A stretch of DNA of 64,000 nucleotides from an uncultured Peptococcaceae bacterium (GTDB lineage: Bacteria > Bacillota > Dehalobacteriia > UBA4068 > UBA4997), in assembly GCA_947625705.1 (NCBI GenBank), contig CANQPG010000005.1:2531-66530 (forward strand), in the 5' to 3' direction. Positions 3,337-58,727 of this stretch are shown piece by piece (the stretch's first letter is position 1; each line of letters begins with the position of its first letter). Below the pieces are notes generated by a model that was not told where the DNA came from, searched no databases, and saw only the letters and a program-made list of their open reading frames with translations. A program made the position numbers and the translations under genes.

Positions 3337-4206
3337 ATGAAAAACCGGAAGCAACTGGCCGAAAACGCCGTTCACGGCGTTTTCCTGCTGCTCGGCCTGA
3401 TCACGGTGGGCTGCGTGCTGCTCATCACGGTATACCTGATCATTTCGGGTATTCCGGCCATTCGCCAAATCGGCCTCTTTAACTTCCTGTTCGGGCGTGA
3501 GTGGGCGTCCACCGCCGCCGAGCCGGCGTTTGGGATACTCCCGTTTATCCTGACGAGTATTTACGGCACGGTCGGGGCGATCATTTTAGGCGTGCCCGTC
3601 GGCTTTATGACGGCGGTGTATCTGGCCAAAGTTGCCCCGCCGCGCGTCAAAGCCGCTGCCGCGCACGCCGTCAGCCTGCTGGCGGGTATCCCCTCGGTGG
3701 TCTGCGGCCTGATCGGTATGCGGGTGCTGGTGCCGGGGATCCGCGCCCTGTTTAATGTCCCGGACGGCGCCAGTCTTTTGGCCGCGATCATTGTGCTGGC
3801 CGTGATGATCCTCCCCTCGATCATCAACGTGTCGATCACCGCGCTGGAAGCCGTGCCCAAGGAATATGAGGAAGCGTCGCTGGCCTTGGGGGCGACGCCG
3901 GTGGAAACCTATTTCCGCGTCTCCGTCCCCGCCGCCAAAAGCGGCATTGCCGCCGCCGTCGTGCTCGGCGTCGGGCGCGCTGTCGGCGAGGCGATGGCCG
4001 TGATGATGGTGGCGGGCAACGCGGCCAATATGCCCTCGCTGTTTGAAAGCGTCCGCTTTTTAACCACCGCCGTAGCCAGCGAGATGTCATATTCCGGCGG
4101 CTTGCAGCGCCAGGCGCTGTTTTCCATCGCGCTGGTGCTGTTCCTGTTCATAATGCTGATCAACGCGGTGTTGAATTTCTTTTTGAAGCGCAGTAAGGAG
4201 AAGTGA
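3337..4206 (+). CDS. pstC: Phosphate ABC transporter permease PstC
   Basis: 289 aa polytopic membrane protein with the EAA-like motif (EEASLALGAT). Its position matches the pst operon. Confidence 0.9.
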   Translation: MKNRKQLAENAVHGVFLLLGLITVGCVLLITVYLIISGIPAIRQIGLFNFLFGREWASTAAEPAFGILPFILTSIYGTVGAIILGVPVGFMTAVYLAKVAPPRVKAAAAHAVSLLAGIPSVVCGLIGMRVLVPGIRALFNVPDGASLLAAIIVLAVMILPSIINVSITALEAVPKEYEEASLALGATPVETYFRVSVPAAKSGIAAAVVLGVGRAVGEAMAVMMVAGNAANMPSLFESVRFLTTAVASEMSYSGGLQRQALFSIALVLFLFIMLINAVLNFFLKRSKEK

Positions 4207-5072
4207 GCATGGCCAAAAACAGTATTTCCGCCAAACGCAAGGGATATATCGGCCTGATGCGAGCGCTGATGGTACTATCCGCCGCGCTCACCTGCGCTTT
4301 GGTGCTGTTTATGATCGCCTATGTGCTGGCCAAAGGGCTGCCGCACATCACCTGGGGTCTGCTCGCCACTGCCCCCAGTTATATGCAGGATACCGTCGGT
4401 ATTCTGCCGGATATTCTGAACACCGTCTACATCATCATCGCCACGCTGGCTGTCGTGATCCCGCTCGGCGCAGGCGCGGCGGTCTATCTGACGGAATACG
4501 CCGCCAACAAGCGGCTCGTTGCCGTCATCGAATACGCCGCCGAGACCCTATCCGGTATCCCCTCGATCATCTACGGTCTGGTGGGCATGCTGTTTTTCTG
4601 CGAGTTTCTGAATATGCAGACGTCGCTGCTGGCGGGCGCGCTGACGCTGGTCATCATGAACCTGCCCACCGTTATGCGCACGACGCAGGAAAGCCTGAAA
4701 ACCGTGCCGCAGAGCTACCGCGAGGGCGCCTTCGGCCTGGGCGCCGGCAAATGGCGGGTGATACGCACAGTGGTGCTGCCGGGCTGTATCGACGGCGTCA
4801 TCACGGGCTGCATACTCTCGGCGGGGCGGATCCTTGGCGAATCGGCGGCGCTGCTGTTTACGGCGGGCGTGGCCCACGTGGTGAACGGCTTTTTCGCGGG
4901 GCTGGCCGGCTCCGGCGCAACGCTGACGGTGGCATTGTATTTCTATGCCAAGGAGCGCGGCGACTTTGAGACGGCCTTTGCCATCGCCGCCATTTTAATG
5001 CTGCTGACGCTGCTGATCAATCTGCTGGCTTGGCTTGTCGGCGCGCTTTGCAAACGCAGGAGGAATGTTTGA
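4203..5072 (+). CDS. pstA: Phosphate ABC transporter permease PstA
   Basis: 289 aa permease with the motif [19 protein letters not shown]. It overlaps pstC and pstB. Confidence 0.9.
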
Positions 5073-8886: not shown

Positions 8887-9339
8887 TTAAATCTCGTCCA
8901 ACATCATCGGCGGATTTTCGGCCGCCTTGACTTTGCCGAAAGCCTTTGCAATAACGCCCGCTTCGTTGATAAGATAGGTGGTGCGGACAACGCCCATAGT
9001 GACCTTGCCGTAGTTCTTTTTCTCCTGCCAGACGTCATAGGCCTTGATCGCGGTCAATTCCGGGTCAGAGAGCAGCGTGAAAGGCAGCTCATACTTTGCG
9101 GCAAAATTTTGATGCGATTTAACGGAATCCTTGCTGACGCCGATTACCACCGCGCCTTTCTGCACAAACTGCGGATACAACTCGCCGAAACCGCAGGCCT
9201 GCTTGGTGCAGCCGGGCGTGTTATCCTTGGGGTAAAAGTAAAGAATGACCTTTCGCCCCAGATACTCCGCCAAAGTGTGCATATCCCCATTTTGATCCGG
9301 CAGGCTGAACGCCGGTGCTTTCGTGCCAACTTCAAGCAT
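8887..9339 (-). CDS. bcp: Thioredoxin-dependent peroxiredoxin Bcp
   Basis: 150 aa with FYPKDNTPGCTKQACGF, which is the peroxiredoxin/AhpC-TSA active-site motif. Confidence 0.85.
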   Translation of the reverse strand: MLEVGTKAPAFSLPDQNGDMHTLAEYLGRKVILYFYPKDNTPGCTKQACGFGELYPQFVQKGAVVIGVSKDSVKSHQNFAAKYELPFTLLSDPELTAIKAYDVWQEKKNYGKVTMGVVRTTYLINEAGVIAKAFGKVKAAENPPMMLDEI

Positions 9340-9440
9340 AATAATTCCCTCCGTTCAAAATATTGATCATGCTTTATTGTACAATTTTTTCCTGCTGATT
9401 ACAATAGCCGCCTTGCGCGCCGGGCGGCGGCATGGCAGAC

Positions 9441-9478
9441 AAAAAGCCCCGTTTCCCAAAAGCTTGGGAAACGGGGCT
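9441..9478 (-). terminator. Rho-independent terminator ending the giant-adhesin operon
   Basis: On the minus strand: GAGCCCCGTTTCCCAAGCTTTTGGGAAACGGGGCTTTTTGT, immediately after the stop at 9486. Confidence 0.65.
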
Positions 9479-9485
9479 CATTTAC

Positions 9486-12400
9486 TTAGGTCACGATAAA
9501 GTTGAAATGGCACTGTGCCAGCGGAGCCGTGCCCTGCCGCAGCTCAAAATAGACGCGGTAAGTGCCGGGCGTCATTCCGGCCGGCAATATCAGCTCACCG
9601 GAAAGGCCGTCAGCCGACATGGTATACGTCCAGCCGCTCGTCACAAAATCGGTGTAGCTGGCGTCTTCCGGTTTGGTGCCGGTCTTCCGCTTAACCGCGG
9701 TCAGCACGATACTTTCCCCGTCCGCCGGCGGTTGATCCGGTGTGATCCTGAACTCCAGGCTGCCGCCGGCAGCGCTGTCCACCAGCTGGCTGGCGCCGGC
9801 CGCCGGTTTGGCCACCATGCCCCTGCCATAGGAGGCGGCTTCGCCCCCACCGGATGCGGTCAATGCCAAATCGGGCGCGGCGGCGGAAGCAGCTTTAATA
9901 CTGCCGCTTTGGCAGATAGGCAGCGGGAAAAGCTCTGCCTTAACCGTTGTGCTTTCGTCCGGCGCGGCAAAGTCCCATTTTACCGCGGCGGTCTTGCCCT
10001 GCGTCAGCTGTGTTAAGGGCAGGAACACCGCGCCGTCGCCGACAATCAGATCAAGCTTCGTGCCGCCGGTATTGGCGGCTGCAACCTCCCCTGCCGCCGC
10101 ACCGGAAAGCCCGGTGAGCCGGATCAGCGAGCCGTCCATATAGTCCCAATCACCGGTGGGCGCCGTCACGGTAAGGGTGGTATCCGACCACGACATCGCC
10201 CCGTCCTCGGGCAGATCTGCCAACTTAAACGGCACTTCGCAGGTGGCGCAGCTGCCGGTGGGAAATTCCAGCGAGAAATAATATTCCCCGGGGTCAAGAC
10301 CGCTGTCTCGGAAATCCAGCAGGAAAAGCAGCGATTTGTCCACCACCGGCTGATTTTGCAGCGGCGGCTGCCATGGCCCCCGCCCGCGCACGTTGATCAG
10401 GTCGGTGGCTCTGATGGTTCCGTTCATGCCGCCGCTCTTAACATACCACCTGGGGTTGGCCGGATACGTGAGGTCGGCCATCAATATCCGGATCGGCGTG
10501 GTCACGACCTCGCCGGTGGAAGCGTTTTTCACCGAGATTTGGGGGAAACGTTCCGCGGCGTCGCCCTCGGTCAAAATGGGGGTATAGTTCAAAACCGTCT
10601 CCACGGTGATCGCGCCATTGGGCGCGACGGTGGGAGTAGTCAAATCAGGGGAATAAAACGTGCCATACTGCCGCCCAGCCTTAGCCCGCCCCGTCGATGT
10701 GCCCTCGCCCTGACCCTGGATCTCCACCTCAATGGTAAAGCGGCCGCGGCTGTCAGATGTCTCAGGCTCGCTCTTTTCATGCGCCAGCAGCGTGATGCAG
10801 ATCGTGCCGCCGGCCATTGTGCGGTTCGAGTACGAGAGATCAAAAGTGAAATACGGCAGGCCTTCAACCTTGGTTACCGGATAATGCGGCTGGGTATGCT
10901 GATAAATGATTTCGCCCACGTTGGGGTCAACAGTGCCGTCCGCATTGGTTTTATTCACAATATTGATATAGTGCATCTTGTCATGCCAAAGGTCGTCGTT
11001 TTGCAGCACATACATGGAGAGGGCTTGTGCCTGCGGGCTGCCCGCGGTGACGGGAGCAAGGTCTTTGGTGAGGATCGGCGTAAACTGCTCCAGATTGGGG
11101 TCAACGGGAACAAATACCGTGTCTTTGCGCACCGAAAGCGGCAGCGGAAACGTCAAGGTATCCTGATAATAGCCGTTGGCGTCCGGTGTGGTATCCTTAA
11201 GCTGCATCACCACGCGGGTTTTCACCGTGCGGCCGCCCAGCTGCCAATAATGATAACTTGCCGTCGCACCGGAATGAAGCGAAAGCCCCTCGGGCATCGT
11301 CTGATCCGGATCGGCCACGAACGCGCCGGTATTGATCTGCACGCCGTTTTCGTCCATGCCGTCAGGATCGCCGATATCGCTTTGCGTATTGGCGTGAATA
11401 AAGACGCCGTGATCCTCGGTATCCCCCTCGGAGCCCACCCAGCGCAGCGTGGTGACGCCCTTGACCTCGCCGTATGTCATCGTCTGGGTGCCGTTGGATA
11501 TCACCTTGGTGCCGATGATCAGCAGCTTGCCCGCCTGAATGGTGAGGACGTTGCCGTCTGCTTGCTCCGCCGGCGTGGCGCCGTCTTCCTTATAACTGCC
11601 GAAATTCGCCACCTCGTTGAGCTCGGTGTTGGCCGTCAGCTGCGATTTGACCAGTCTCACTTCCCCCCGCACCTGGGCGATGGAAAAGTCCAGATTGGTG
11701 CCGTCCACCTTATCGGTGGCGCCGGTCAAAGTGAGGTTACAGTTTTCAATGGTCACGGTATCGGCACGCTGCAGCGAATCGATCTCGCCGCTGAGGTTTT
11801 TCACATTGAGCGTGCGGGTGCCGCTGACCCGCGTCAGGTTACCGGAGCCGAAAATGCTGCCGCCGATGGTAACGTCGCCGGCGGTTTGCTCCACGTTAAC
11901 GGACGAATCGCCAAAGACGAGGAATTTTTCCTCATTGAATGTGGTGCCCTGGCCGTTGCAGCCGCCATAGATGGTCTTTTCCACGGTCACCGCCCCGGTA
12001 TCCGACGTAATATTCACAGCAGTGTCCCCGGTGATACGCGCCATGCTGGAGCCGCCGAACACCCTGAGGCCGATCCGGCCGCCCGAGATGTTAACGGTGC
12101 TGCTGCCAAAGACGGCGCCCAAGCCCTTGCCGCTGCCGACGCCGCTGCCGCCGCCGAACACGTCCCCGCTGATGAAACTCGTCTGCGCAACCGTGACGGT
12201 CGCGGAGCCGCCCACCGGGTTGGTTATTACCGCGGTTTCGTCAGTGTTGAACGTGCCCAAGCCCACCTTGCCGCAATAGCTGCCGCCGTAAACGCTGCCC
12301 AAAATCCTGCCGCCGGAGATCAGCACATTGGTCAAAACCGTGTTGGCGTCGGCGTTAAAGCCCCTGCCCTCCATGCCGATGGTGCCCAGCGAGCCGCCGC

Positions 12401-15400
12401 CATAGACATTGCCGTTGGCCACACTGCCGTCAATGCTTTCCTTGCCCACGGTGCCGCCGCTGATGCTAACGGTAGCAGAACGAGCCACCGCGCCGATGAT
12501 ATCGTCGGTGATATCCTCATTAATTTGCAGACCCTGGCCGCCGCCGTAGATATTCCCCGCGATGTCGCCGCCGGAGACTTCCACTTTGGTGGAGCCGCCG
12601 GCGCCGGCGTCGTCCCCCGCGTCAGTGATAACATTCTGCACCACGGCCTGGTCGCCGCCGCCGTAAACATTGCCGGTGACCAGGCCTCCCGATACAGATA
12701 CCGCTGTATCCCCGGTGACGGCGGCAGTCTCGGAATAACCGCCGCCATAAACATTACCCTGCACCGTGCCGCCCTGTACGGTAACGGCAGTATTGCCGGT
12801 AAGCTCGGCCTTATTGCCCCCGCCATAGACATTGCCGCTCACCGTGCCGCCGCGAATGTCAATAGTGGGGTTACCGGTGAGACTTGCCACATTGCCGCCG
12901 CCGTAGATATTGCCGCCCACACTGCCCTGATAAACGGTGACAAACGTGCTGCCGGTCATAGCGCTGCCGCTGTCCTCGACACCGGAAAGGCCGCCGAAGA
13001 CGCTGCCGGTCACACTGCCGCCCACCATGGTCAGTTTGGCGTCGCCATTGACCGTGCCCTCGTCCGAGGAAGCCACCAAATCGTTATTTATCGTGCCGCC
13101 GGCCATATAAACGCTGGAAAGACCGGAGGTGGAATTGCCTTTCTGATAGCCGCCGCCAAACAGGTAATTGGCCGAACCGCCCAGGAAGTGCAGATCACGG
13201 TTGCCCCCGGTCATGGAGACGCGGAAACTGCCGCCGTAAACGCGCTGATAATTGCCGCTGAAAATGGCCACCTGCGACGAGCCGTTAATAGCCGAAGTAC
13301 CGATACCGCCGCCAGTGCCGCCGAATATGTTGAGCGTGCCCGCAACCGTAATGCCATTGCCCATAATGAGCTTGTTGCAGGCGGCATAAAAAGCGTCAAA
13401 ATAATTCTCTCGCGTAAAGGAAGAATACTGCATCATATTGTCGTGCCCGGCGGACAACGCAATATCGCGGATAATCATCGGAGCTTCCAGTCTGGTAAAA
13501 ATATATTCCGAATCCAGCGAACAGGAATCCATGGAAAGCGTTCCGGTGCTGCCGGCCGCGGCAGCGGGATCAGTGCCGGTGACCGTACAAGGCAGTTCCG
13601 GTAAAGTATCGGTTCTGTTCCAATTAAAAATACTTCTCCCGCTCCAGCGCAGCTCGGCGTCGGTATCCACCACGATGATGTTCAGATACTTATCCTGCGG
13701 CGCCTGGCCGCCCGCATATACGCCAGTGAAATTGGCCATTGCCTGAGAAAGCGTATGCCCATAATCCCGCGATTGACTGTCAGCGCCGATGTCGCTCATA
13801 TACGCCGCAACACCCCAGTCCCACTGTGCCGTAAGCGTCGTGCCCGCCGGCACCAGATCGCCGGGGTCATAAGTGCTGCCGTCGTCGCCCAGCCAGCCGT
13901 CGAAGACGATAACCGTCTTGTATCTGCTGTCAGTCACACCGGGCGCGGCGATCTCCTGATTATCCGCGTCGTACAGTTTTTCCGGTGCGGCAAAGCCCAG
14001 ATCCTCCGGCCAGCGGGCATATGTCTGCTCGCCGTCCACGCAGGACATGGCAGCCGCCGTGCCGCTGCCCGTGCCGGGGGCAAACATCACCGTCGCCCCC
14101 TCCGCCAGAAGCACCAGCTCGTCGCTCCAGCAGGCGCATAAAATGGCCTCGCCGGCAGCCATATCCACCGGAAAAGCGTCGCCCGGGGCATATACCTGTT
14201 CACCCTCGGCGGTCAGCCAGCCCCGAAAAGTCCCCAACTCGGTGGCCGGGGCAAAAAATGCCGGGCAGGCCGGGGCGACCGCCTGACCGTTAAGCGCCAA
14301 AGCGCGCGCGGAAACCGCCTCGCCTGTTCCCGCGCCGGGAAGCAGATAAAGCGTAATTTCGCCGTCCGCCAATGTGTAGCCGGCCGCTTCGGCTGCGGCC
14401 AGGAATGTAAAATTCTCCGGGGCGCACAGGAACAAACCCGCCTGCCCGCCCGCGGCAGCGGGATAAAACACATCATTGCCCACCGTCTGCTGCGTGCGAA
14501 CTTCCACCCGATAATCGACCTGCGGTTCTTCGGTCTCCGCCGGCGTCGGTTCTTCGGTCTCGGCCGGTGCAGGTTCCTCGGTCTCCGCCGGCGTCGGTTC
14601 CTCAGTCTCCGCCGGTGCAGGTTCCTCGGTCTCCGCCGGTGCAGGTTCCTCGGTCTCCGCCGGTGCAGGTTTTTCGGTCTCGGCAGGCGCAGGCTCCTCG
14701 GTCTCCGCGGGCGTCGGTTCTTCGCTTTCCGCCGAGACATCATCTGCCGTTGCCGCCAAGGCAACTTTCGTACCGAATATGGCAGCAAGTATTGTGTTCC
14801 CGGTCGGGGTCTGCTCATCTTCCGCCGGCGCTGGCTGCTCGTCTTCCACCGGCGCCGGCTGCTCCTCTTCCGCCGGCGCGGGCTGCTCGTCTTCCACCGG
14901 CGCGGGCTGCTCATCTTCCGCCGGCGCGGGCTGCTCGTCTTCCGCCGGCGTTTGGTTCTCATCTTCCGCCGGCACTGGCTGTTCGTCTTCTGCCGGCGTT
15001 TGGTTCTCATCTTCCGCCGGCGTTTGGTTCTCATCTTCCACCGGCGCAGGCTGCTCATCTTCCGCCGGCACTGGCTGTTCGTCTTCTGCCGGCGCCGACT
15101 GCTCGTCTTCCGCCGGCGTTTGGTTCTCATCTTCCGCCGGCGCTGGTTCTTCCTCCTCGATCGGCTCCATCACGTCAGTCGGGTCAACGATCACAATGGG
15201 CGCAGATGTCGCAGGAGTGGTCACGACCTCCTCCAGCGATGTGAAATCATTAAATATGCAGGTAAAGTGCGGAGCTGCTGCCGCGTCCGCGCCGGAAAAG
15301 CAGCCGTCGCCCAATTCCAGCAGGCTGGCAGGCAGCGTCAATGTGCCCGTCAGGTTATAGCAGCCGTAGAACAAATAATCCCCCAGGCCGGTGACCCCCT

Positions 15401-15662
15401 CCGGTATCACCACCGCGGTGATCCGGTCGGCATATGGCGCCAGCGGTGCGGTTTCCGGGGTAAAATCATCGCTTGACCCCGTCCCCTCCAGCGTCAAAAC
15501 CCCGGTGGTGGATAAAACGGCGGTAAGCTCCGCCCCCACGGGGATACGCTCCGCCTCGTCCTCGGCGGTTACCACCGTAAACGACGTGAGGAATACACTG
15601 GTCAGCAAAGAAATGATCAGCAGAACCGACGTCAGCCGCTGCAATGACGTATATTGCCGCAT
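9486..15662 (-). CDS. Giant (2058 aa) secreted adhesin-like protein. Domains in order: signal peptide, BspA-type leucine-rich repeat, two acidic tandem-repeat arrays (PAEDEQPA x~15 and PAETEEPA x~9), a long Gly-rich predicted parallel beta-helix region (recurring NVYGGG / IYGGG motifs) and C-terminal Ig-like beta domains.
   Basis: ORF 9486..15662 with a consensus-like RBS. N-terminus MRQYTSLQRLTSVLLIISLLTSVFL. Repeats are visible in the protein and as 24-bp DNA repeats. It is the last gene of the sipW operon and is followed by a terminator. Confidence 0.85.
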   Translation of the reverse strand: MRQYTSLQRLTSVLLIISLLTSVFLTSFTVVTAEDEAERIPVGAELTAVLSTTGVLTLEGTGSSDDFTPETAPLAPYADRITAVVIPEGVTGLGDYLFYGCYNLTGTLTLPASLLELGDGCFSGADAAAAPHFTCIFNDFTSLEEVVTTPATSAPIVIVDPTDVMEPIEEEEPAPAEDENQTPAEDEQSAPAEDEQPVPAEDEQPAPVEDENQTPAEDENQTPAEDEQPVPAEDENQTPAEDEQPAPAEDEQPAPVEDEQPAPAEEEQPAPVEDEQPAPAEDEQTPTGNTILAAIFGTKVALAATADDVSAESEEPTPAETEEPAPAETEKPAPAETEEPAPAETEEPAPAETEEPTPAETEEPAPAETEEPTPAETEEPQVDYRVEVRTQQTVGNDVFYPAAAGGQAGLFLCAPENFTFLAAAEAAGYTLADGEITLYLLPGAGTGEAVSARALALNGQAVAPACPAFFAPATELGTFRGWLTAEGEQVYAPGDAFPVDMAAGEAILCACWSDELVLLAEGATVMFAPGTGSGTAAAMSCVDGEQTYARWPEDLGFAAPEKLYDADNQEIAAPGVTDSRYKTVIVFDGWLGDDGSTYDPGDLVPAGTTLTAQWDWGVAAYMSDIGADSQSRDYGHTLSQAMANFTGVYAGGQAPQDKYLNIIVVDTDAELRWSGRSIFNWNRTDTLPELPCTVTGTDPAAAAGSTGTLSMDSCSLDSEYIFTRLEAPMIIRDIALSAGHDNMMQYSSFTRENYFDAFYAACNKLIMGNGITVAGTLNIFGGTGGGIGTSAINGSSQVAIFSGNYQRVYGGSFRVSMTGGNRDLHFLGGSANYLFGGGYQKGNSTSGLSSVYMAGGTINNDLVASSDEGTVNGDAKLTMVGGSVTGSVFGGLSGVEDSGSAMTGSTFVTVYQGSVGGNIYGGGNVASLTGNPTIDIRGGTVSGNVYGGGNKAELTGNTAVTVQGGTVQGNVYGGGYSETAAVTGDTAVSVSGGLVTGNVYGGGDQAVVQNVITDAGDDAGAGGSTKVEVSGGDIAGNIYGGGQGLQINEDITDDIIGAVARSATVSISGGTVGKESIDGSVANGNVYGGGSLGTIGMEGRGFNADANTVLTNVLISGGRILGSVYGGSYCGKVGLGTFNTDETAVITNPVGGSATVTVAQTSFISGDVFGGGSGVGSGKGLGAVFGSSTVNISGGRIGLRVFGGSSMARITGDTAVNITSDTGAVTVEKTIYGGCNGQGTTFNEEKFLVFGDSSVNVEQTAGDVTIGGSIFGSGNLTRVSGTRTLNVKNLSGEIDSLQRADTVTIENCNLTLTGATDKVDGTNLDFSIAQVRGEVRLVKSQLTANTELNEVANFGSYKEDGATPAEQADGNVLTIQAGKLLIIGTKVISNGTQTMTYGEVKGVTTLRWVGSEGDTEDHGVFIHANTQSDIGDPDGMDENGVQINTGAFVADPDQTMPEGLSLHSGATASYHYWQLGGRTVKTRVVMQLKDTTPDANGYYQDTLTFPLPLSVRKDTVFVPVDPNLEQFTPILTKDLAPVTAGSPQAQALSMYVLQNDDLWHDKMHYINIVNKTNADGTVDPNVGEIIYQHTQPHYPVTKVEGLPYFTFDLSYSNRTMAGGTICITLLAHEKSEPETSDSRGRFTIEVEIQGQGEGTSTGRAKAGRQYGTFYSPDLTTPTVAPNGAITVETVLNYTPILTEGDAAERFPQISVKNASTGEVVTTPIRILMADLTYPANPRWYVKSGGMNGTIRATDLINVRGRGPWQPPLQNQPVVDKSLLFLLDFRDSGLDPGEYYFSLEFPTGSCATCEVPFKLADLPEDGAMSWSDTTLTVTAPTGDWDYMDGSLIRLTGLSGAAAGEVAAANTGGTKLDLIVGDGAVFLPLTQLTQGKTAAVKWDFAAPDESTTVKAELFPLPICQSGSIKAASAAAPDLALTASGGGEAASYGRGMVAKPAAGASQLVDSAAGGSLEFRITPDQPPADGESIVLTAVKRKTGTKPEDASYTDFVTSGWTYTMSADGLSGELILPAGMTPGTYRVYFELRQGTAPLAQCHFNFIVT
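14524..14735. repeat. Tandem array of ~9 x 24-bp coding repeats (PAETEEPA units) inside the giant adhesin gene
   Basis: Seen directly: the unit ggttc(t/c)tcggtctc(c/g)gccgg(c/t)g(t/c)(c/a)g is iterated. Confidence 0.8.
14805..15165. repeat. Tandem array of ~15 x 24-bp coding repeats (PAEDEQPA/PAEDENQT units) inside the giant adhesin gene
   Basis: Seen directly: the unit ctggctgctcgtcttccaccggcg is iterated with minor variants. Confidence 0.8.
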
Positions 15663-15696
15663 CGTGTATCCCTCCTTTCGCCGGGGTCAATCAAAA

Positions 15697-16596
15697 TCAG
15701 TTGGTCGCCGCGGGCGCTTCGGCAACGGTATATGTAAAATCGCTCTCGCTGTAAACGTCCTCGGTATTCCTTTTCAGCAGAACCAGCGAGACCGTGCCCT
15801 GCGCGGGGATCAGCAGCGTACCCGTACCGGTGGCGTCAGTCGCCTGGGTCTCCCAGGTCGGATCCGGCACCAGCCGCATATCCTTATCCCGGGAATCCTC
15901 GGCCAGCAGATAAAACTCGCTGACCTTCAGCTTCAGACCCTCCACCAAGCAATCCTTTTGGCCGGTATTGTAAAACGTCACAGCCACCGCGCCATAGCTG
16001 CCTTTGCGGTCGGTCACTTTCATCACCACGGCGCTGTCCGCTGCCGCCAACGCCACCTGGGCGGTCAGCGTTTTGGCGTAAGGCGCGGTGGAGACCACGC
16101 TCACGGTCACCTCGTCAGTCCCGTCGGCGCCGAACGCTGCCACCGGGATCAGGCAGGTTATCGTCCTGTCGTTGACCGCCTTGCCGGCGATGGTTCCGCC
16201 GCTCCCGGTGCTGCCGCCGTCGTTCCAGGTAACGTCCACCGTATCGCCCGCCTGATTGACCGCGGCGCAGGTGTACATGATATCATTTTGGGTGGGAAAA
16301 TCCGCCACCGCATAATTCTTCAGCGTAAATGTGAAAGGCACCGTTTTGCCGCTTTCGTCGGGCGAGATACGGTGCAGCGTGCCGTCCAGCTCGCTGCTGG
16401 TAAAATAGAAATCCCCCGCCGTCACCAGCGAGTTATTCGACCAGTCCTGCAAATAACGGGCAGCGGTCACGCCCAGCATGGCCGCTGCGGCAAGGACTGC
16501 CGCCAGCAGCAGCAGACGCACCGCCGGCGGGCGGTGGAGAAAAGACGGGCGTCCGGCCGCCGTTTCGGCAGATTTTCGGGCTTGCTGCTGCGCCAT
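15697..16596 (-). CDS. Secreted TasA/BsaA-like protein 3, a putative SipW-cognate substrate. It has a long basic N-region, a hydrophobic core, and then the motif TAA|RY.
   Basis: N-terminus MAQQQARKSAETAAGRPSFLHRPPAVRLLLLAAVLAAAAMLGVTAARYLQDWSNNSLVTAG, which resembles SipW-cognate signal peptides (TIGR04088-like ...A.Y..D...NN...AG). The mature part is beta-rich and Thr/Gly-rich. RBS GGGGGAGGAAAA lies upstream. It is in an operon with sipW. Confidence 0.6.
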   Translation of the reverse strand: MAQQQARKSAETAAGRPSFLHRPPAVRLLLLAAVLAAAAMLGVTAARYLQDWSNNSLVTAGDFYFTSSELDGTLHRISPDESGKTVPFTFTLKNYAVADFPTQNDIMYTCAAVNQAGDTVDVTWNDGGSTGSGGTIAGKAVNDRTITCLIPVAAFGADGTDEVTVSVVSTAPYAKTLTAQVALAAADSAVVMKVTDRKGSYGAVAVTFYNTGQKDCLVEGLKLKVSEFYLLAEDSRDKDMRLVPDPTWETQATDATGTGTLLIPAQGTVSLVLLKRNTEDVYSESDFTYTVAEAPAATN

Positions 16597-16644
16597 TTTT
16601 CCTCCCCCTCTCCGCTGATATAACAGGTTGATATCCGCCGCTGC

Positions 16645-17229
16645 TCAGGCGTCGGTGCTGAGCCGCTGCCGCGCCAGCACGGTAACGGTCACCAGATCGA
16701 TCTCGTCGGCATAGCCCGCGTCGCTGGCCGCCTGCGGCCAGTTGACCGTCAGCGTATAAGTGTGCTCCTGCCTGGCCAATTTGCCGTCGGCGGCGTCCTG
16801 CACCAGCGGGAAAGCGCCGCCGGTGAGCGTTTGGCTTTTGGCGCCGCCCGTCAATATCGTTCCCGTATCGGTGACGGTGCCGGCAGTGCCCGCGTCCCGG
16901 GCTGCGGCAAGCTCAAACTCCAGCGGCAGATTGCCGGTGGTCTCCACCGTAATGTCATAATCCAACGCCACCTCGCTGACGGCGTCATCTTTATAGTTCA
17001 CAACTTTGAATTGCAATGTTTGGGGGTCGCTGCCGGGGAACATGCCCTCAATGACCATGCGGATAGGTTCGCCGCCGCCCGCCGCCATTGCGGCCACCGT
17101 GGCCGTGCCGCTGCCGCCCGTCGTGGCGGCATACCGCGCCAGGGTCACCGAAACTATCAGGGTGGTGACCAGCCCCAGATAGATCAGATAGAGCCAGAGC
17201 CGACTATACTTTTTTCCCGGTATCCTCAT
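16645..17229 (-). CDS. Secreted TasA/BsaA-like protein 2, a putative SipW-cognate substrate. It carries the motif TLA|RYAATTGGSGTATVAAMA.
   Basis: N-terminus MRIPGKKYSRLWLYLIYLGLVTTLIVSVTLARYAATTGGSGTATV. The start overlaps the 3' end of sipW1 (translational coupling). It shares the motif with protein 1 (TLAKYASEASGTATATVAKWA). Confidence 0.6.
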   Translation of the reverse strand: MRIPGKKYSRLWLYLIYLGLVTTLIVSVTLARYAATTGGSGTATVAAMAAGGGEPIRMVIEGMFPGSDPQTLQFKVVNYKDDAVSEVALDYDITVETTGNLPLEFELAAARDAGTAGTVTDTGTILTGGAKSQTLTGGAFPLVQDAADGKLARQEHTYTLTVNWPQAASDAGYADEIDLVTVTVLARQRLSTDA

Positions 17230-17719
17230 GCTGCTCCGCCCCCCGTTTCTCCGGCAGAAAAATCAATATCGCGCCCCCGGCCGCCAAAAGCAATATGCCA
17301 AGGGGCTTTTGCAGCAACATCAACAGCTCGCCCGCCCCGGGCAGGCACAGCACCACCCGCCCCAGCACGTCCGCCGGGGGCACCGCCGCATCGTCGGGGG
17401 TGTTGTTGGCGTCGCCGCGGGTACGGTAAGCCGCCGCCGTTTTCTCGATAATTCGGTGGGTCACCACCGCGCCCTCCTGCCGAAAGGTGATGATATCCCC
17501 CACCGCATAATCCGCCTCGCGGTGGGCGATGACCATTGAACCGGCGGGGAGCGTTGGCTCCATGCTGCCGGTGGTGACGATCATCGGATAAAATCCCAGC
17601 ACGTGCGCCGGTTCCTGGTGCAGCACAAAGCGGGAAACCAGCAGCCCCATATCAACGGCCAGCACCAACGCCAGCAGGCAGACAAGTATGCCCCGGATAA
17701 ATCTCAGCAGCGTCCTCAT
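17204..17719 (-). CDS. sipW: Signal peptidase I, SipW/Sec11 (ER/archaeal) type, copy 1
   Basis: Motifs TGSMEPT, VTHRII and RGDANNTPD match the B. subtilis SipW boxes (SGSMEP / THRIV / GDNN). It has an N-terminal TM segment and a C-terminal TM segment. Confidence 0.85.
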   Translation of the reverse strand: MRTLLRFIRGILVCLLALVLAVDMGLLVSRFVLHQEPAHVLGFYPMIVTTGSMEPTLPAGSMVIAHREADYAVGDIITFRQEGAVVTHRIIEKTAAAYRTRGDANNTPDDAAVPPADVLGRVVLCLPGAGELLMLLQKPLGILLLAAGGAILIFLPEKRGAEQHEDTGKKV

Positions 17720-19026
17720 ACTGCGTCCTCCACCCGTATGTTCAGATGCAGGGTATAGATCCGGCCGTCGCGGCTGCCGAGAGCGGTGTCCACAACGTCG
17801 TTGCCGTCAAAAGGCCAGCGCCATTCAATGCGATAGCGCCGCTCACCGCTCGCCGCCAGCTGCACTGCACTGCTGACCGTTTCGCTGTCCAGAGCGGCAG
17901 TCTGCCAGTCCGTAAGCCCCCTGGGGGTCAGTTCATCAGTGGCCAGGCGGTATTCCAGGGGAATATGAAAATCCCCCTCCTTGATACCCAGGGTAAATTT
18001 GATGGCTCGGCTGCGGCCGTTTTTCACCCGAAAAAGATAATACCCCTCCGAGCCCGGCGCGATCAGCCTCTCGCCGTAGCCGTCCAACGGGCGGAACAGG
18101 TCGATCTCGGCCTGCTGCGTCCAGGTCTGCCAGCTCGCGCGGTCATCGCTGCGGCTGACCTCGACGGTTCCGGGGTCAGTATCGGGCGGCGTGGGCGGTT
18201 TGGGGTCAGGGTCGGTTCCCGAACCACCGCCGCCACCTCCGCCATCATCAGCACCGCCATCATCAGGCGCGGGCGCCGGCTTATCGGTGGGCTTATCGTC
18301 CGGTTTATCACCCGGTTTGTCCATCGGCTTGTCCGTGGGTTGTTCCGTCGGCTGCTCGCCGGGCTTGTCCGTCGTCTGCTCGCCGGGCTTAGCCCCCGGC
18401 GGTTCCGCCGGCGTTGTGCCGGGGCTGGCCGCCGCCTCATCTGCCTCACGGGTGCCTCTAAGCTCCACGTCAAGCCCGCCGTCGCCGTCCAATGTCAGTT
18501 CCACGTCCACCTCAACGGTCACGACCTTAATGTGCAGCACGCACACCATTGCTTCATAGTCAATGTAAGCGTCGCTCGCCGCGTCGCGAACCACGCGAAT
18601 GGTGCGGCCGGCCAGCACATTGCCCGCCGGATCCAGCACCGATAGCTCATGCTCCCCCGGCTCCACCTCATCAAAACGAAAATGCCCCGTCTCACTCAGG
18701 CGGGCGTAACGGGGCTCGCTATGGAGTTCCACCGAACCCTGCGAAAAAGGCGTGCCGTTGGTATAATGCACCACGCCCACAATGCTGATCCGCTCCGTCA
18801 GCTCCCCGGTTTGCGTGTTATCCGCAGGCGGCTCGGGCTGATCTGCGGGCGTAAGAACGATGGTGTCGATCAGCGCACCGGAGCGCCCGGGATCGGTGGT
18901 TCTGCCCAGCAAAAAGCCCACAATGCAGGACGTGGCCAGCATCAGAAACAGCAACAGCAGCAGCAAAGGCAGAATGATCCTGCGCTTTTGCCGTGCCGCC
19001 GTTTTTGCCTGAGCAGCTGTGTTCAA
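17716..19026 (-). CDS. Membrane-anchored accessory protein. Domains in order: N-terminal TM segment, transthyretin/carboxypeptidase-regulatory-like beta-sandwich domain, Pro/Asp/Lys-rich linker (DKPGEQPTEQPTDKP...), and a C-terminal globular domain. It is possibly a TapA-like fibre anchor or assembly factor.
   Basis: ORF 17716..19065. The probable real start is TTG at 19026, preceded by AAGGAGGAA plus a 7-nt spacer. The N-terminus is then MNTAAQAKTAARQKRRIILPLLLLLLFLMLA. A GSVEL...GHFRFDEVEPGEHELSV beta-sandwich motif is present. It lies between the two sipW modules. Confidence 0.55.
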   Translation of the reverse strand: MNTAAQAKTAARQKRRIILPLLLLLLFLMLATSCIVGFLLGRTTDPGRSGALIDTIVLTPADQPEPPADNTQTGELTERISIVGVVHYTNGTPFSQGSVELHSEPRYARLSETGHFRFDEVEPGEHELSVLDPAGNVLAGRTIRVVRDAASDAYIDYEAMVCVLHIKVVTVEVDVELTLDGDGGLDVELRGTREADEAAASPGTTPAEPPGAKPGEQTTDKPGEQPTEQPTDKPMDKPGDKPDDKPTDKPAPAPDDGGADDGGGGGGGSGTDPDPKPPTPPDTDPGTVEVSRSDDRASWQTWTQQAEIDLFRPLDGYGERLIAPGSEGYYLFRVKNGRSRAIKFTLGIKEGDFHIPLEYRLATDELTPRGLTDWQTAALDSETVSSAVQLAASGERRYRIEWRWPFDGNDVVDTALGSRDGRIYTLHLNIRVEDAV

Positions 19027-19144
19027 AATCGGTTCCTCCTTAGGGAAAAACACAAATAAGATCAACGCAAAAAGTTTCGGCTCTCGGCGGAAAACGTCCC
19101 CAAAACGTGCTCCGCCGAAGGCCGAAGCCTCCGGCGAAGTAAGT

Positions 19145-19771
19145 TTAGGAAACTTTCTGTTCAGCCTTGATGGTAACAGGAATGTTGTAAGTCAGCGTGC
19201 CGGCAGCGGAATCAGTGCCAACCTTGGTGTCAAGTTTGTCCCCTGTAAGAGTGTTATCATAATCGGTCGCGTCCCACTTCCAGTAAACAGTCTGAGTAGA
19301 CTTCTTGGAAGCGGCATTAGTCAGCACATCGCCGGTCAGGGTGGCTTTGCCGCCGGTCACGGTCAGGGGAGTATTGCAAGTGGAATCGGAATAGAACTTG
19401 ACCGGTGCCTTAGCAATAGCAGGATCGCTCATGTCCATTTCGATAGTGTAAGTAAACGCAACCTCGGTGCCGGTGCCGTCCACCGCCAGCTGGAACGAGC
19501 CGGTGGTGCCGGGAGCGATCTTATCGGCCGCCACCAGGTTGGCATTTTCCTTAGCCGTGTCTTTCAAATTCAACGCGATCTGGGTCGTATCGTCGTACTC
19601 TGTGGAACCCCCGTCAGTGAACTTGATCGCCCACTTGGCCACCGTCGCCGTAGCAGTACCGCTGGCCTCGCTGGCATACTTGGCCAGCGTGCCCGCCGTC
19701 AAACTCATGGTGACCAGACACAACACCAGCGTCAGGACGGTAAGCCGGCCGACAATTCCTTTCTTTTTCAT
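19145..19771 (-). CDS. Secreted TasA/BsaA-like protein 1, a putative SipW-cognate substrate and likely the major subunit. It carries the motif TLA|KYASEASGTATATVAKWA.
   Basis: N-terminus MKKKGIVGRLTVLTLVLCLVTMSLTAGTLAKYASE. RBS AGGAGGAAACGAACATG. It lies immediately downstream of sipW2. The mature part is beta-rich and Thr/Gly/Asp-rich. Confidence 0.6.
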   Translation of the reverse strand: MKKKGIVGRLTVLTLVLCLVTMSLTAGTLAKYASEASGTATATVAKWAIKFTDGGSTEYDDTTQIALNLKDTAKENANLVAADKIAPGTTGSFQLAVDGTGTEVAFTYTIEMDMSDPAIAKAPVKFYSDSTCNTPLTVTGGKATLTGDVLTNAASKKSTQTVYWKWDATDYDNTLTGDKLDTKVGTDSAAGTLTYNIPVTIKAEQKVS

Positions 19772-19800
19772 GTTCGTTTCCTCCTATGTTATAAATTGTA

Positions 19801-20460
19801 TTATTTTGACCGCGTTTCCGCGGCTTGGAGCCCATCTTCGGTGTTCTCGCCCCGCTCCAATTCTTTCAGGCGGGCTTCCAGCTCCTGCGTCCGCGCTTTT
19901 TCGCGCCGGGCGTCCATGCTGCGGCGCAGCACGTCCCACCCCACCAGGATCAGCAGCGGGCAGATGATAAACACGATCATGCCGGTGGTGGTCTGCATAA
20001 ACATGGCAAGCGACCCCAGCTTCGCAATATGTATGCCGGTGTAGACGCCCTCTACCTGTTCGGGACTTACTGCCAACTGGTCGGCAGTGTTATTGGCGTC
20101 GCCCCGGGTGACATAGCGCACCTCGCCGTCCACCTGCGTCACCTCGGCGATACGGTGGGTAACCGCAATGCTTTCACCGGTAAGGTAGCAAATCACATCG
20201 CCTTGAGAAAGCCCCGCCGGGTCGTCGGTATGGCGAATGAAAATCATATCGCCGGCGGCAAATGTCGGCTCCATCGAGTCGGAAAGACATATCACCGGGC
20301 TGTAACCCGCCACGCTGGGAATATGGTCAGCGTCGGTATAGGTTTTGGTGATCAGAACCAGATTGATCAGAATGATCGGAATAAAAATCAGGCAGAGAAT
20401 ACCGCCAAGCACATTGATCAGAACCCCGCCGGAGCTCTTTTTTTCTTGCCGAGACGTCAT
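19801..20460 (-). CDS. sipW: Signal peptidase I, SipW/Sec11 (ER/archaeal) type, copy 2. It is the first gene of the operon.
   Basis: Motifs SDSMEPT, VTHRIA and RGDANNTAD. The ORF track starts at TTG 20544. The ATG at 20460 is preceded by AAGGAGG plus a 5-nt spacer, which gives MTSRQEKKSSGGVLINVLGGILCLIF. Confidence 0.85.
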   Translation of the reverse strand: MTSRQEKKSSGGVLINVLGGILCLIFIPIILINLVLITKTYTDADHIPSVAGYSPVICLSDSMEPTFAAGDMIFIRHTDDPAGLSQGDVICYLTGESIAVTHRIAEVTQVDGEVRYVTRGDANNTADQLAVSPEQVEGVYTGIHIAKLGSLAMFMQTTTGMIVFIICPLLILVGWDVLRRSMDARREKARTQELEARLKELERGENTEDGLQAAETRSK

Positions 20461-20580
20461 TGCGGCCTCCTTCCAACGGGGACACATACCCGCTGTAAAT
20501 GTTATCCTGCCCGGCTGCCTTTGGCTTGGGCGCCGCCGGGTCAATTATGCGGGCAAAATGCAGCTATACCCCATAATATT

Positions 20581-20609
20581 ATTATAAATGTACAATTCGG
20601 CTGTGTCAA
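20581..20609 (-). promoter_or_regulatory. Consensus sigma-A-type promoter for the sipW-fibre-adhesin operon: TTGACA-17 nt-TATAAT
   Basis: Seen directly on the minus strand: cTTGACAcagccgaattgtacattTATAATaata. It lies about 115 nt upstream of the sipW2 ATG. Confidence 0.55.
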
Positions 20610-20891
20610 GTTGGGAATTTTCGGAAGCAAAAAACGCCGGTTTACAATCCCCTTTCCATAGGTTAAACAGCAAAGCCCGGCTGGTAAAGCCATTATAACA
20701 CAGCATAATCGGGAATTGACGCCATTGCGCAGAATTCAGGCTTTTTTGCGTAAAATTGCCCGGCGGGCTGGCTGAATATGCCAAAAAAGTTTCGTTCCTC
20801 GAAAAACATTCGAAAAACGAAGCTTTTATCATACAGCAAAGTTTGACACTTTGGCCGCAGCTGTCTGTATTTTTTTCAAGCAGAGCTTTTA

Positions 20892-25427: not shown

Positions 25428-25503
25428 TGGAGCGGGCAAAGAGATTCGAACTCTCGACTTCCACCTTGGCAAGGTGGCACTCTACCACTGAGTTATACCC
25501 GCA
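25428..25503 (-). tRNA. tRNA-Gly (anticodon GCC)
   Basis: The reverse complement GCGGGTATAACTCAGTGGTAGAGTGCCACCTTGCCAAGGTGGAAGTCGAGAGTTCGAATCTCTTTGCCCGCTCCA folds as a cloverleaf. Confidence 0.9.
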
Positions 25504-25580
25504 TGGTGCCTTGGGGCGGAATCGAACCACCGACACGAGGATTTTCAGTCCTCTGCTCTGCCAACTGAGCTACCAAGGCA
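25504..25580 (-). tRNA. tRNA-Phe (anticodon GAA)
   Basis: The reverse complement is GCCTTGGTAGCTCAGTTGGCAGAGCAGAGGACTGAAAATCCTCGTGTCGGTGGTTCGATTCCGCCCCAAGGCACCA. Confidence 0.9.
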
Positions 25581-25584
25581 AGTA

Positions 25585-25661
25585 TGGCGACGCAGATGGG
25601 GCTCGAACCCACGACCTCCAGCGTGACAGGCTGGCATTCTAACCAACTGAACTACTGCGCC
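25585..25661 (-). tRNA. tRNA-Asp (anticodon GTC)
   Basis: The reverse complement is GGCGCAGTAGTTCAGTTGGTTAGAATGCCAGCCTGTCACGCTGGAGGTCGTGGGTTCGAGCCCCATCTGCGTCGCCA. Confidence 0.9.
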
Positions 25662-25668
25662 ATGATAG

Positions 25669-25744
<76 letters not shown>

Positions 25745-43414: not shown

Positions 43415-43443
43415 TTGACAAATTCGCCCTGTTTGGCTATAAT
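43415..43443 (+). promoter_or_regulatory. Consensus sigma-A promoter for the ABC transporter operon: TTGACA-17 nt-TATAAT
   Basis: Seen directly: atTTGACAaattcgccctgtttggcTATAATttttt, about 70 nt upstream of the substrate-binding protein gene. Confidence 0.55.
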
Positions 43444-43516: not shown

Positions 43517-44506
43517 ATGAAGAAACTGGTTAAAATGCTGGCCGTGCTGTGCGCCCTGTGTCTGGCGCTTACCGGCTGCGGCGGCGGCGACACGCAGACC
43601 GCCAACTACAAGATCGGCGTTATGCAGCTGATGGATCACGAGGCGCTGAACCTGGCGCAGGAGGGCTTTATTGCCGCGCTGACCGAGAACGGCTATGTTG
43701 ACGGCGAGAACATCACCCTGCTGCTGGAAAACGGCCAGGGCGACACCAATAACCTCTCGACCATCGCGGACAAGTTTGTATCCGAGAACGTTGATCTGGC
43801 ATTCTGCATTGCCACTCCCTCCACGCAGGCTATGGCTGGCAAGACCACCGAGATCCCGATCGTGGCCACCGCCGTCACCAGCTTCACCGAGGCGGGTCTG
43901 GTTGCTTCCGATGAAGAGCCCGGCGGCAACATCACCGGCACGACGGATATGAACCCCATTTCCGATCAGATCGACCTGATGTTACAGCTGTTCCCCGATG
44001 TGAAAACTGTCGGCTTCCTCTACACCTCGTCCGAGGATAACTCCGTATTGCAGTGCCAGATCGCTAAGGATTATCTGGAGACCAAGGGTATCCAGACCGT
44101 TGAGCGCACCATCACCAACACCAACGATATTCAGCAGGCTACGCAGGCTATCGTCAGCGAGTGCGACGCGATCTATATCCCGACCGATAACAACTTCGCT
44201 TCCGCTATGCCCACTGTGACCGAGGTCACCATGGCTGCCGGGATCCCGACTATCTGCGGCGAGTCTAACATGGTCAAGGGCGGCGGCACCGCCACCGTGG
44301 GTATCACCTACTACGGTATCGGCTATCAGGCCGGCTTGATGGCGATCGATATTCTGGCTAACGGCGCCGACCCGGCTACCATGCCGATCAAGGGCTCCAG
44401 CGAGTTTGAATACTGCCTGAACGGCGACGCGCTGGAAGCTTTGGGCGTAACCGTACCGGAGGATCTGGCGGACTACGTTATCCACCCCTCCACTGACGCT
44501 GAATAA
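43517..44506 (+). CDS. ABC transporter substrate-binding lipoprotein (BMP/ABC_sub_bind family)
   Basis: Lipobox LALTGCGG. Fold typical of PF04392-like binding proteins. It is the first gene of a three-gene ABC operon. Confidence 0.75.
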   Translation: MKKLVKMLAVLCALCLALTGCGGGDTQTANYKIGVMQLMDHEALNLAQEGFIAALTENGYVDGENITLLLENGQGDTNNLSTIADKFVSENVDLAFCIATPSTQAMAGKTTEIPIVATAVTSFTEAGLVASDEEPGGNITGTTDMNPISDQIDLMLQLFPDVKTVGFLYTSSEDNSVLQCQIAKDYLETKGIQTVERTITNTNDIQQATQAIVSECDAIYIPTDNNFASAMPTVTEVTMAAGIPTICGESNMVKGGGTATVGITYYGIGYQAGLMAIDILANGADPATMPIKGSSEFEYCLNGDALEALGVTVPEDLADYVIHPSTDAE

Positions 44507-57065: not shown

Positions 57066-57152
57066 GCCGAAGTGGTGGAATTGGCAGACGCGCCGGACTC
57101 AAAATCCGGTGATGGCGACATCGTGTGGGTTCAAGTCCCACCTTCGGCACCA
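57066..57152 (+). tRNA. tRNA-Leu (anticodon CAA). It has a long variable arm.
   Basis: GCCGAAGTGGTGGAATTGGCAGACGCGCCGGACTCAAAATCCGGTGATGGCGACATCGTGTGGGTTCAAGTCCCACCTTCGGCACCA. Confidence 0.9.
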
Positions 57153-57190
57153 AAAAAACAAGTTGCCCCGCAGGGGCGGCTTGTTTTTTT
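57153..57190 (+). terminator. Rho-independent terminator after tRNA-Leu
   Basis: aaaaaaACAAGTTGCCCCGCAGGGGCGGCTTGTtttttttt. Confidence 0.7.
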
Positions 57191-57646
57191 TGCTGAGATG
57201 AGCGCAGAACCCACAAAACACCAAGCGGATACCTCTGACTGATGTTTGGGAAAAGGCCATTGGCAATCACGCCCAAAACTGCGGCAGCCAGGAAAGCGGT
57301 GTCCGCTTCAAGTCCCTCCAACAATTTTACTTAAGTTTAAGCTGGGGAAATTCTTGTCAAAATAAGGCTTGATCCTGCTTTTGACTGTAAATGAATAGTT
57401 AGAGTATTACTCTAAAATGCCTAAATATTTACCAAGACCGACCTTGGGTATAAGATGGCGGGAGCAAATCAAAAAGAATACTCTGCAAAAATTAACTTAC
57501 AGAGTATTCTTTTGCTTTTTGCCAATTAGTTTATATTTCTGCAAATACTTGTACGGCAAGTGCATTTCGTACTGCTATTAAAAATAATATCGGTAGCCAC
57601 ACTTTGGGAAATGGTATTTTTTTGGATAGTGGTACATCAACAGCTG

Positions 57647-57780: not shown

Positions 57781-57813
57781 GTTTATTTATACTCCGTTTT
57801 TAATTCTTAAAAT

Positions 57814-58719: not shown

Positions 58720-58727
58720 TTTATTAC

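Follow-up and report, generated by a model that had tools for sequence, protein, structure and literature searches.

The window analysed here is a stretch of 64,000 nucleotides (nt) of contig CANQPG010000005.1, from an uncultured Peptococcaceae bacterium, and the locus in question is a set of seven minus-strand open reading frames (ORFs) in the region 9486-20610, all of them at the positions given in a first-pass annotation of the same DNA. From the promoter end these genes code for a signal peptidase (sipW2), small protein 1, an anchor-type membrane protein, a second signal peptidase (sipW1), small proteins 2 and 3, and a giant secreted protein (Table 1), a set of parts that is considered here as a candidate system for the assembly of a surface fibre.

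Organization of the operon

The seven genes are tightly packed, with intergenic gaps of 29-48 nt or overlaps (4 nt between the stop codon of the anchor gene and the start of sipW1, and 26 nt between sipW1 and the gene for small protein 2), and each of them has a Shine-Dalgarno site upstream. Perfect TTGACA-17-TATAAT sites occur twice in the window, when none is expected from shuffled sequences, and one of them is the promoter that precedes sipW2. Between this promoter and the terminator, which lies directly 3' of the stop codon of the giant gene, only weak terminator-like sites are found, all within coding sequence, and the junction between small protein 3 and the giant gene is a 34-nt gap without a terminator. 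The proposal that a single promoter and a single terminator bracket seven minus-strand genes is thus borne out by the complete match of the promoter, the hairpin with its T-run and the tight packing, and a single-promoter operon is plausible from these signals. The terminator sequence is almost perfectly palindromic, and on the plus strand it scores as a hairpin as well. A riboswitch or other structured leader was considered for the ~110 nt upstream of sipW2 and discarded, because this leader gave no Rfam match at E<=1 and its fold z-score is 0.42.

Table 1. Genes and transcription signals of the operon (positions in the window; aa, amino acids; ER, endoplasmic reticulum; Ig, immunoglobulin; LRR, leucine-rich repeat)
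Feature	Position	Strand	Description
Sigma-70/sigma-A type promoter, TTGACA-17-TATAAT	20581..20609	minus	12/12 match
sipW2, ER/archaeal-type signal peptidase I, 219 aa	19801..20460	minus	TIGR02228 98.9 bits; SDSMEP, VTHRI, RGDANN boxes
Small protein 1, 208 aa, presumed major fibre subunit	19145..19771	minus	Signal end AGTLA|KY; conserved GTATATVAKW; Ig-like beta-sandwich
Anchor-type protein, 436 aa from TTG 19026	17716..19026	minus	Assigned by hhalign, hmmsearch and hydropathy
sipW1, second ER/archaeal-type signal peptidase I, 171 aa	17204..17719	minus	TIGR02228 80.1 bits; TGSMEP, VTHRI, RGDANN boxes
Small protein 2, 194 aa, paralogue of small protein 1, presumed minor subunit	16645..17229	minus	hhalign 96.6%, E 6e-10
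Small protein 3, 299 aa	15697..16596	minus	Signal VTAA|RY; conserved segment SLVTAGDFYFTS; then two Ig-like domains
Giant secreted protein, 2058 aa	9486..15662	minus	Signal peptide, LRR stretch, octapeptide arrays, Gly-rich region, beta-rich C-terminal part
Intrinsic terminator	9444..9479	minus	16-bp stem and T-run, directly 3' of the giant-gene stop codon

The two signal peptidases

Both peptidases pass the model TIGR02228 (archaeal/ER-type signal peptidase I, with a cut-off of 51.85 bits), which confirms their proposed assignment to the ER type of SipW and Sec11. In place of a Ser-Lys dyad they contain Ser (SMEP), His (THRI) and GD(A)NN boxes; the boxes originally given as SGSMEP, THRI and GDNN are therefore present as regards Ser, His and Asp, although their actual reading is that of Table 1. 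Hydropathy places hydrophobic segments at both ends of the two proteins, and sipW2 has a membrane segment near each terminus and ends in a charged tail. Translation of sipW2 most likely starts at the ATG at 20460, which has the ribosome binding site GGAAGGAGG and is the same start as in the orthologue of L001 (one of the eleven related loci, designated by L and a number, from which conservation was assessed), so that a product of 219 aa is more likely than the 247 aa proposed earlier. Neither protein reaches the cut-off of NF046067, the equivalog model of Bacillus SipW (116.8 and 70.3 bits, against 190 required), and they are thus peptidases of the same type as, but not orthologues of, the Bacillus enzyme.

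The two paralogues are ~34% identical to each other, and L006, an AT-rich locus, holds a separate orthologue of each of them (sipA for sipW2, E 1e-32, and sipB for sipW1, E 7e-19), which indicates that the pair, earlier described as a duplicated module, is old and does not derive from a recent local duplication. The persistence of two such genes suggests that they may have distinct substrates or act as a complex.

The small secreted proteins and their family

The three small proteins had been taken as proteins of one kind, but only the first two are paralogues (the L006 orthologue of small protein 2 matches small protein 1 over almost its full length, E 5e-6), and small protein 3 is a PapD/MSP-like two-domain Ig protein of a different fold type, not homologous to small protein 1. 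In its monomer model the N-terminal 62 residues are unstructured and are followed by the PapD-like Ig domains.

A profile built from 44 homologues of small protein 1 and searched among 1.84 billion representatives retrieved 8,552 clusters (at 50% identity) at E<=1e-3 and 5,599 at E<=1e-10, almost entirely from metagenomes and uncultured Clostridia; where the source gives a name, it is 'hypothetical protein', in metagenome-assembled genomes (MAGs) of Clostridia, Eubacteriaceae, Lachnospiraceae and Anaerolineaceae. None of 69 close homologues of small protein 1 has a Pfam domain, no Pfam or NCBIfam model matched over the subunit domain of 62 sampled family members and, sub-threshold matches aside, no non-peptidase gene of the operon could be placed in a family of either database. 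A sequence search of PDB chains with small proteins 1-3 and with the 44-sequence profile gave no meaningful match either. When hmmsearch was run over all the ORFs of the window, the family profile matched only small protein 1, small protein 2 and the C-terminus of the anchor-type protein, and these three domains are one family with an Ig-like sandwich fold. Several longer members (P0101, P0160, P0087, P0169 and others, of 384-654 aa) are composed of a complete small-protein-1 unit and 200-450 extra residues, which in a few of them are C-terminal Listeria-Bacteroides (Flg_new) repeats, that is, subunits with passenger domains.

The segment right after the predicted cut site is nearly invariant in the family (V44, A45, W47), and its T-A-T-V-A-K-W stretch is the most conserved part; in small protein 2 the signal ends in VTLA|RY and GTATVAAM follows. 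An isopeptide lock through the conserved Lys that follows the cut site was considered and rejected, since small proteins 2 and 3, like some members of the family, have Arg at this position; the conserved Lys/Arg looks like a processing or charge signal.

Signal peptides and relation to TasA and BsaA

In small proteins 1-3 the N-terminal hydrophobic segment ends in [G/V]-T-x-A-[K/R]-Y. This segment is closed by [VT]-[SGA]-G-T-[LFY]-A-K-Y in 179 of 211 members of the small-protein-1 family, and 114 of 120 members of the TasA family have G-G-T-[WFY]-A-[AY]-F (from residue 28 on, the TasA sequence used equals that of chain 8aur_A, and the first residue of this chain confirms that TasA is cut after G-G-T-W-A). 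Alignment of the signal regions of both families by hhalign gave a 74% probability (E 2.7e-5), and a core G-T-Φ-A-x-[Y/F] is common to the small proteins and TasA. The description of these signals as similar to SipW-cognate ones holds for this core, although TIGR04088, the model of the SipW-dependent signal (34 positions, cut-off 19 bits), matched neither small proteins 1-3 nor the 62 relatives.

A TasA/BsaA-like nature of the small proteins, which had also been claimed, finds no support at the family level. At E<=0.1, PF12389 and NF046066 (TasA/camelysin) detected neither small proteins 1-3 nor the anchor-type protein, and they matched none of the 62 family members; TIGR04090 (the BsaA family) and TIGR04089 matched neither the window proteins nor those 62 members; TIGR04087, the TapA-type model of NCBIfam, matched neither the anchor-type protein nor small protein 3; and a TasA-family profile found nothing among all the window ORFs. 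TasA-family controls do match PF12389, NF046066, TIGR04090, TIGR04089 and TIGR04088 (with 35-40 bits for the last of these, and weakly for TIGR04090). When mature domains were compared, hhalign gave a 0.4% probability between the small-protein-1 family (n=176) and the TasA family (n=112), the best local match being the last strand (vtiTAtQ vs FnFEATQ), and when signal peptides were included the signal region alone aligned to TasA. The resemblance to fibres of the TasA and Tafi (see below) types is one of layout, and not of membership of the TasA family as judged by sequence.

The anchor-type membrane protein

The gene for the anchor-type protein most likely starts at TTG 19026, within an ORF of 449 aa, and its product is organized as an N-terminal membrane helix, a CarboxypepD_reg-like Ig domain, a linker of ~100 aa rich in Pro, Thr, Asp and Lys, and a C-terminal domain like small protein 1 (matches to PF13620 and to the PT repeat are below their cut-offs). 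This last domain (residues 316-446) matches the small-protein-1 family with 94.6% probability in hhalign (E 6.7e-8) and with E 7e-8 in hmmsearch. Its ~130 residues align only to residues 60-204 of small protein 1, from which it follows that the anchor-type protein has the sandwich and lacks the conserved N-terminal segment. The membrane-anchored, Pro-rich accessory protein of the first-pass annotation is thus correct as to helix and linker, and has to be completed with a third copy of the small-protein-1 domain at its end. In L001, L004, L006, L010 and L011 the orthologues are linked to membrane segments in every case.

The giant protein

The giant protein has an ordinary signal peptide (VVTA|EDE) followed by a short BspA-type LRR stretch at residues 42-125 (PDB 4h09, E 3.6e-11), a single stretch for which LRR_5 (PF13306) scored 22.6 bits, below its cut-off of 27.7. 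Further on, 24-nt tandem repeats encode two octapeptide arrays, acidic and rich in Pro, of PAETEE and PAEDEQ types (14524-14734 and 14811-15146, with 8.8 and 14 copies and 81-83% matches), which likely vary in length between strains. A Gly-rich region (residues ~770-1330) contains eight GxΦYGGG units (GN[VI]YGGG), suggesting a beta-solenoid, and the C-terminal third is beta-rich. No LPXTG motif is present, and neither hhalign nor hmmsearch found similarity between the giant and the subunit family. In its earlier description as a giant LRR/beta-helix adhesin, the LRR part has to be limited to residues 42-125 at the N-terminus; that it is an adhesin we infer from size, repeats and context. The idea that its export depends on SipW finds no support, as its signal peptide has no special motif.

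Conservation of the locus

A sipW-like gene adjoins small protein 1 in 10 of the 11 related loci, and the order sipW, small protein 1, anchor-type protein, sipW, small protein 2, small protein 3 is shared by the window, L001, L011 and L006. Two other lineages (L001 and L011, in which small protein 1 is 41-60% identical to that of the window and the last gene exceeds 2,180 aa) have the full seven-gene order including the giant, so that the coupling of the giant as the last gene is kept outside the window; the syntenic giant of L001 is 45% identical, and the last gene of L011 codes for more than 2,182 aa. L006 has no separate giant gene; there, the homologue of small protein 3 makes up the N-terminal part of a longer protein (634 aa) in which PKD and Big domains are weakly matched.

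In nearly every locus the protein with the anchor-type domain is linked to the membrane. In the window, L001, L006 and L011 this is through one N-terminal helix, and in L004/L005 and L010 the domain is fused to a SipW-like domain without the catalytic Ser and His, plus extra helices. These fusions of a dead signal peptidase to a fibre-subunit-like domain lie at 6495-7631 in L004, 4380-5516 in L005 and 5915-7159 in L010 (minus strand). In L002 (Lachnospiraceae MAG JAISGP010000091.1), where no sipW-like gene was found in the 13 kb read, the protein at 3447-4406 has its subunit-like domain behind an ordinary signal peptide and ends in VKTGD, a hydrophobic stretch and KHKNDSKK, a tail that resembles a sorting signal or a C-terminal membrane anchor. 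L009 codes (10651-13455) for a 934-aa cadherin-like protein with a SipW-cognate-type signal (CTATRY) and a subunit-like domain at its C-terminus, which may serve as an adhesin at the tip instead of as an anchor, so this domain may not have one and the same role in all lineages. Adhesin-like modules are found fused to domains of the family in the 634-aa protein of L006, the 934-aa protein of L009 and the members with Flg_new repeats.

A model for a SipW-dependent fibre

We favour, with modest confidence, the reading that the operon encodes a SipW-dependent and sortase-independent surface fibre of a Gram-positive, Clostridia-type cell, membrane-anchored and heteropolymeric, with a giant adhesin-like protein alongside; we are less confident that the fibre displays the giant protein. 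In this model (a) the precursors would leave through Sec and stay bound to the membrane through their own signal peptides, until the SipW paralogues cut after the Ala of G/V-T-x-A|[K/R]-Y and free a strand-like N-terminus (K-Y-x-S-x-x-x-G-x-x-T-A-T-V-A-K-W); (b) the freed segment would insert into the sandwich of a neighbour subunit by donor-strand complementation to give a polar chain, with small protein 1 as the shaft and small protein 2 as a minor subunit; (c) the membrane protein, whose sandwich lacks the N-terminal segment, would accept a strand and tether one end of the fibre to the membrane (with no strand of its own to donate, it fits at one end of the chain only), its Pro/Thr-rich linker of ~100 residues being presumably long enough to cross a Gram-positive wall; (d) small protein 3, with its N-terminal segment and two complete Ig domains, may cap the other end, or else act as an adaptor or as a strand-donating chaperone, the last being a role that has been proposed for TapA (PMC10151520); and (e) the giant protein, with its ordinary signal peptide, would attach to the fibre, possibly via small protein 3, or adhere beside it. 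Neither a sortase signature (TLxTC) in any window ORF nor an LPXTG-like C-terminal signal in the seven proteins was found by regular expression search, and the structural matches of small protein 1 are enriched in donor-strand polymers, with low scores.

Several observations weigh against this model. No TasA, BsaA or SipW-cognate model was matched, and the mature domains have no profile similarity to TasA. The polymer is a prediction from genes and monomer models, and in the monomer model of small protein 1 residues 41-50 have a predicted local distance difference test (pLDDT) score of ~79, a moderate value, so the N-terminal segment could be an ordinary edge strand. The giant has no subunit-like domain, special signal or recognizable attachment module, and co-transcription of the seven genes is a prediction from their sequence. 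Finally, the anchoring role may not be general, as the L009 protein has a SipW-type signal and no obvious anchor.

Alternative explanations

We give rather less than an even chance to the giant protein being functionally independent of the fibre, as an ordinary secreted or loosely bound adhesin, or as a BsaC-like matrix protein that merely shares the promoter. Its signal peptide lacks the G-T-x-A-[KR]-Y end and it contains no subunit-like domain; moreover, a separate giant gene is absent from L006 and lies elsewhere or on the other strand in L004 and L010, and there is a precedent in bsaC, the last gene of the sipW-bsaA-bsaB-bsaC locus, whose product is outside the BsaA polymer. However, the slot right after small protein 3 is kept in three lineages as distant as indicated above for small protein 1, the L006 homologue of small protein 3 is fused to a large extra region, and the giant has no attachment module of its own, all of which weighs against independence.

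It is also possible, if somewhat improbable, that the small proteins are true but very divergent members of the TasA/BsaA superfamily, in which case the operon would be one more TasA-type biofilm-matrix locus. The published relatives of TasA and BsaA are extremely divergent, as an iterative search gathered 2,172 related proteins, with only 632 in the camelysin InterPro family (PMC11580942), and a shared signal-peptide end that hhalign aligns, an adjacent sipW-like gene and the last-strand match, which is the best local one between the profiles, would all fit such an origin. Against it, PF12389, NF046066, TIGR04090 and TIGR04088 fail with the window proteins and with 62 relatives and work with TasA controls, the mature domains show practically no profile relation, and chaperone-usher pilins score slightly above TasA.

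Finally, we consider it quite unlikely that there is no fibre and that the operon is a processing and export module, in which the peptidases mature a set of Ig-like proteins of the wall or surface that remain monomers, perhaps together with the membrane protein, and these coat the envelope or assist the giant adhesin in folding and in staying at the surface: it is true that the peptidases are the only firm assignment, that Ig-like sandwiches are generic surface domains (with low structural scores here) and that PapD/MSP-type domains such as those of small protein 3 are often non-polymerising binders or chaperones, but a near-invariant segment after the cut site, absent precisely from the membrane-tethered copy, is hard to explain for monomers, and both the presence of several paralogous subunits in a single operon and the fact that the structural matches are enriched in donor-strand polymers speak for the fibre.

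Comparison with known systems

The closest known layouts are those in which an ER-type signal peptidase is encoded beside its substrates. In tapA-sipW-tasA of Bacillus subtilis, as here, the signal ends in G-T-Φ-A|x-[F/Y], a strand-like segment precedes the small beta-sandwich of the subunit, and an accessory protein has been proposed at the fibre end (PMC9674648, PMC10151520). The operon described here differs in that it has a pair of peptidase paralogues where Bacillus has one, adds a PapD-like protein and ends with a gene for 2058 aa, and in showing no sequence membership; its accessory protein would be a subunit-like acceptor domain on a membrane helix, without the TapA fold, and the model of small protein 1 resembles Ig-type pilins more than it does the jelly-roll of TasA. 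The Clostridium perfringens sipW-bsaA-bsaB-bsaC locus shares the Clostridia-class host, a sipW gene in first position, two paralogous small matrix proteins and a large secreted last gene, and its BsaA polymers are attached to the membrane without a sortase (PMC11580942). However, TIGR04090 is unmatched here, an isopeptide lock is unlikely given that small proteins 2 and 3 have Arg in place of the Lys after the cut site, the operon ends with a Gly-rich giant of solenoid type and not with a vWA protein, and it has, in addition, another peptidase and a subunit-like domain tethered to the membrane. TasA/BsaA operons with several paralogues and adhesin-type genes nearby have been noted (PMC11580942), and in AbpX-type loci wall anchors are predicted to join the fibre (10.64898/2026.01.04.697558).

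The haloarchaeal Tafi system has the same parts list: a peptidase (TafD), major and minor pilins joined by strand donation (TafA/E), a multi-domain tip (TafC), and a membrane anchor in which one helix precedes a pilin-like domain (TafF) (PMC12337348). Tafi is archaeal, often Tat-dependent and has a DUF5305 peptidase partner, a domain that Pfam did not find in the window operon; the likeness is one of parts. Chaperone-usher pili (Fim, Pap, Csu) provide the best structural matches of small protein 1 (to pilins) and of small protein 3 (to PapD-like chaperones), and follow a similar logic, with subunits that have an N-terminal extension and one type with a groove and no extension; the usher and periplasmic chaperone of a diderm envelope, which define that class, are not found here. 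Sortase pili are also heteromeric Gram-positive surface fibres with major, minor and tip components in one operon, but here there is no sortase signature in the 64 kb, no LPXTG and no logic of a pilin-motif Lys, and the processing is N-terminal instead of C-terminal. The F-ENA spore appendages were discarded as a parallel, as they are made of unrelated DUF4183 proteins without signal peptides.

The claim that this architecture had not been described holds only in part, because comparable loci appear in the literature of 2022-2026 (PMC11580942; PMC12337348; 10.64898/2026.01.04.697558). What is new is a very large, unannotated subunit family that is matched by none of the TasA and BsaA models, the conserved peptidase pair, a putative membrane-tethered acceptor-type domain (sometimes on a dead peptidase), and the recurring coupling to a giant protein.

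A broader claim is tentative and, in our view, rather doubtful: that the small-protein-1 family as a whole (~8,550 clusters) provides the subunits of unrecognised but widespread Gram-positive pili, built without sortase by paired ER-type peptidases and strand complementation, rooted in the membrane through an acceptor domain (carried by a dead peptidase in some lineages) and presenting very large adhesins. If the fibre model is right, many uncultured Clostridia would build and anchor fibres in a sortase-independent way that current annotation misses, assembly of the TasA/Tafi type (Bacillus, C. perfringens and archaea) would extend to a much larger sequence space, and adhesion and biofilm formation would become more accessible to study in bacteria that are difficult to grow. 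The related contigs may derive from the gut or the rumen. The operon offers a defined parts list, namely two peptidases, shaft and minor subunits, a putative membrane-tethered acceptor, a possible cap or adaptor and a presumed giant adhesin, together with a precisely predicted cleavage site. Even if the fibre model is wrong, a very large, conserved and unannotated family of secreted proteins with dedicated signal peptidases would remain.

Other features of the window

The neighbours of the operon are ordinary chromosomal genes, coding for a glycoside hydrolase family 3 (GH3) protein, an AMP-binding enzyme, a GNAT family protein, a peroxiredoxin-like protein, a two-component system, AddAB and GlyQS. 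Between the operon terminator and the peroxiredoxin-like gene (8887-9339) there is a weak promoter-like site (9404..9376, minus strand), and the other perfect TTGACA-17-TATAAT site of the window (43415-43443, plus strand) is just upstream of the ORF at 43517-44506. A tRNA-Leu(caa) gene (57066-57152) is followed by a block of low G+C content that extends to position 64000 (0.37-0.40, vs ~0.59 elsewhere) and encodes proteins with Cu_amine_oxidN1 and YrpD domains, so that 57066-64000 looks like an island inserted beside a tRNA gene. A cluster of four tRNA genes (Gly-gcc, Phe-gaa, Asp-gtc and Val-tac) is found at 25428-25744 on the minus strand.

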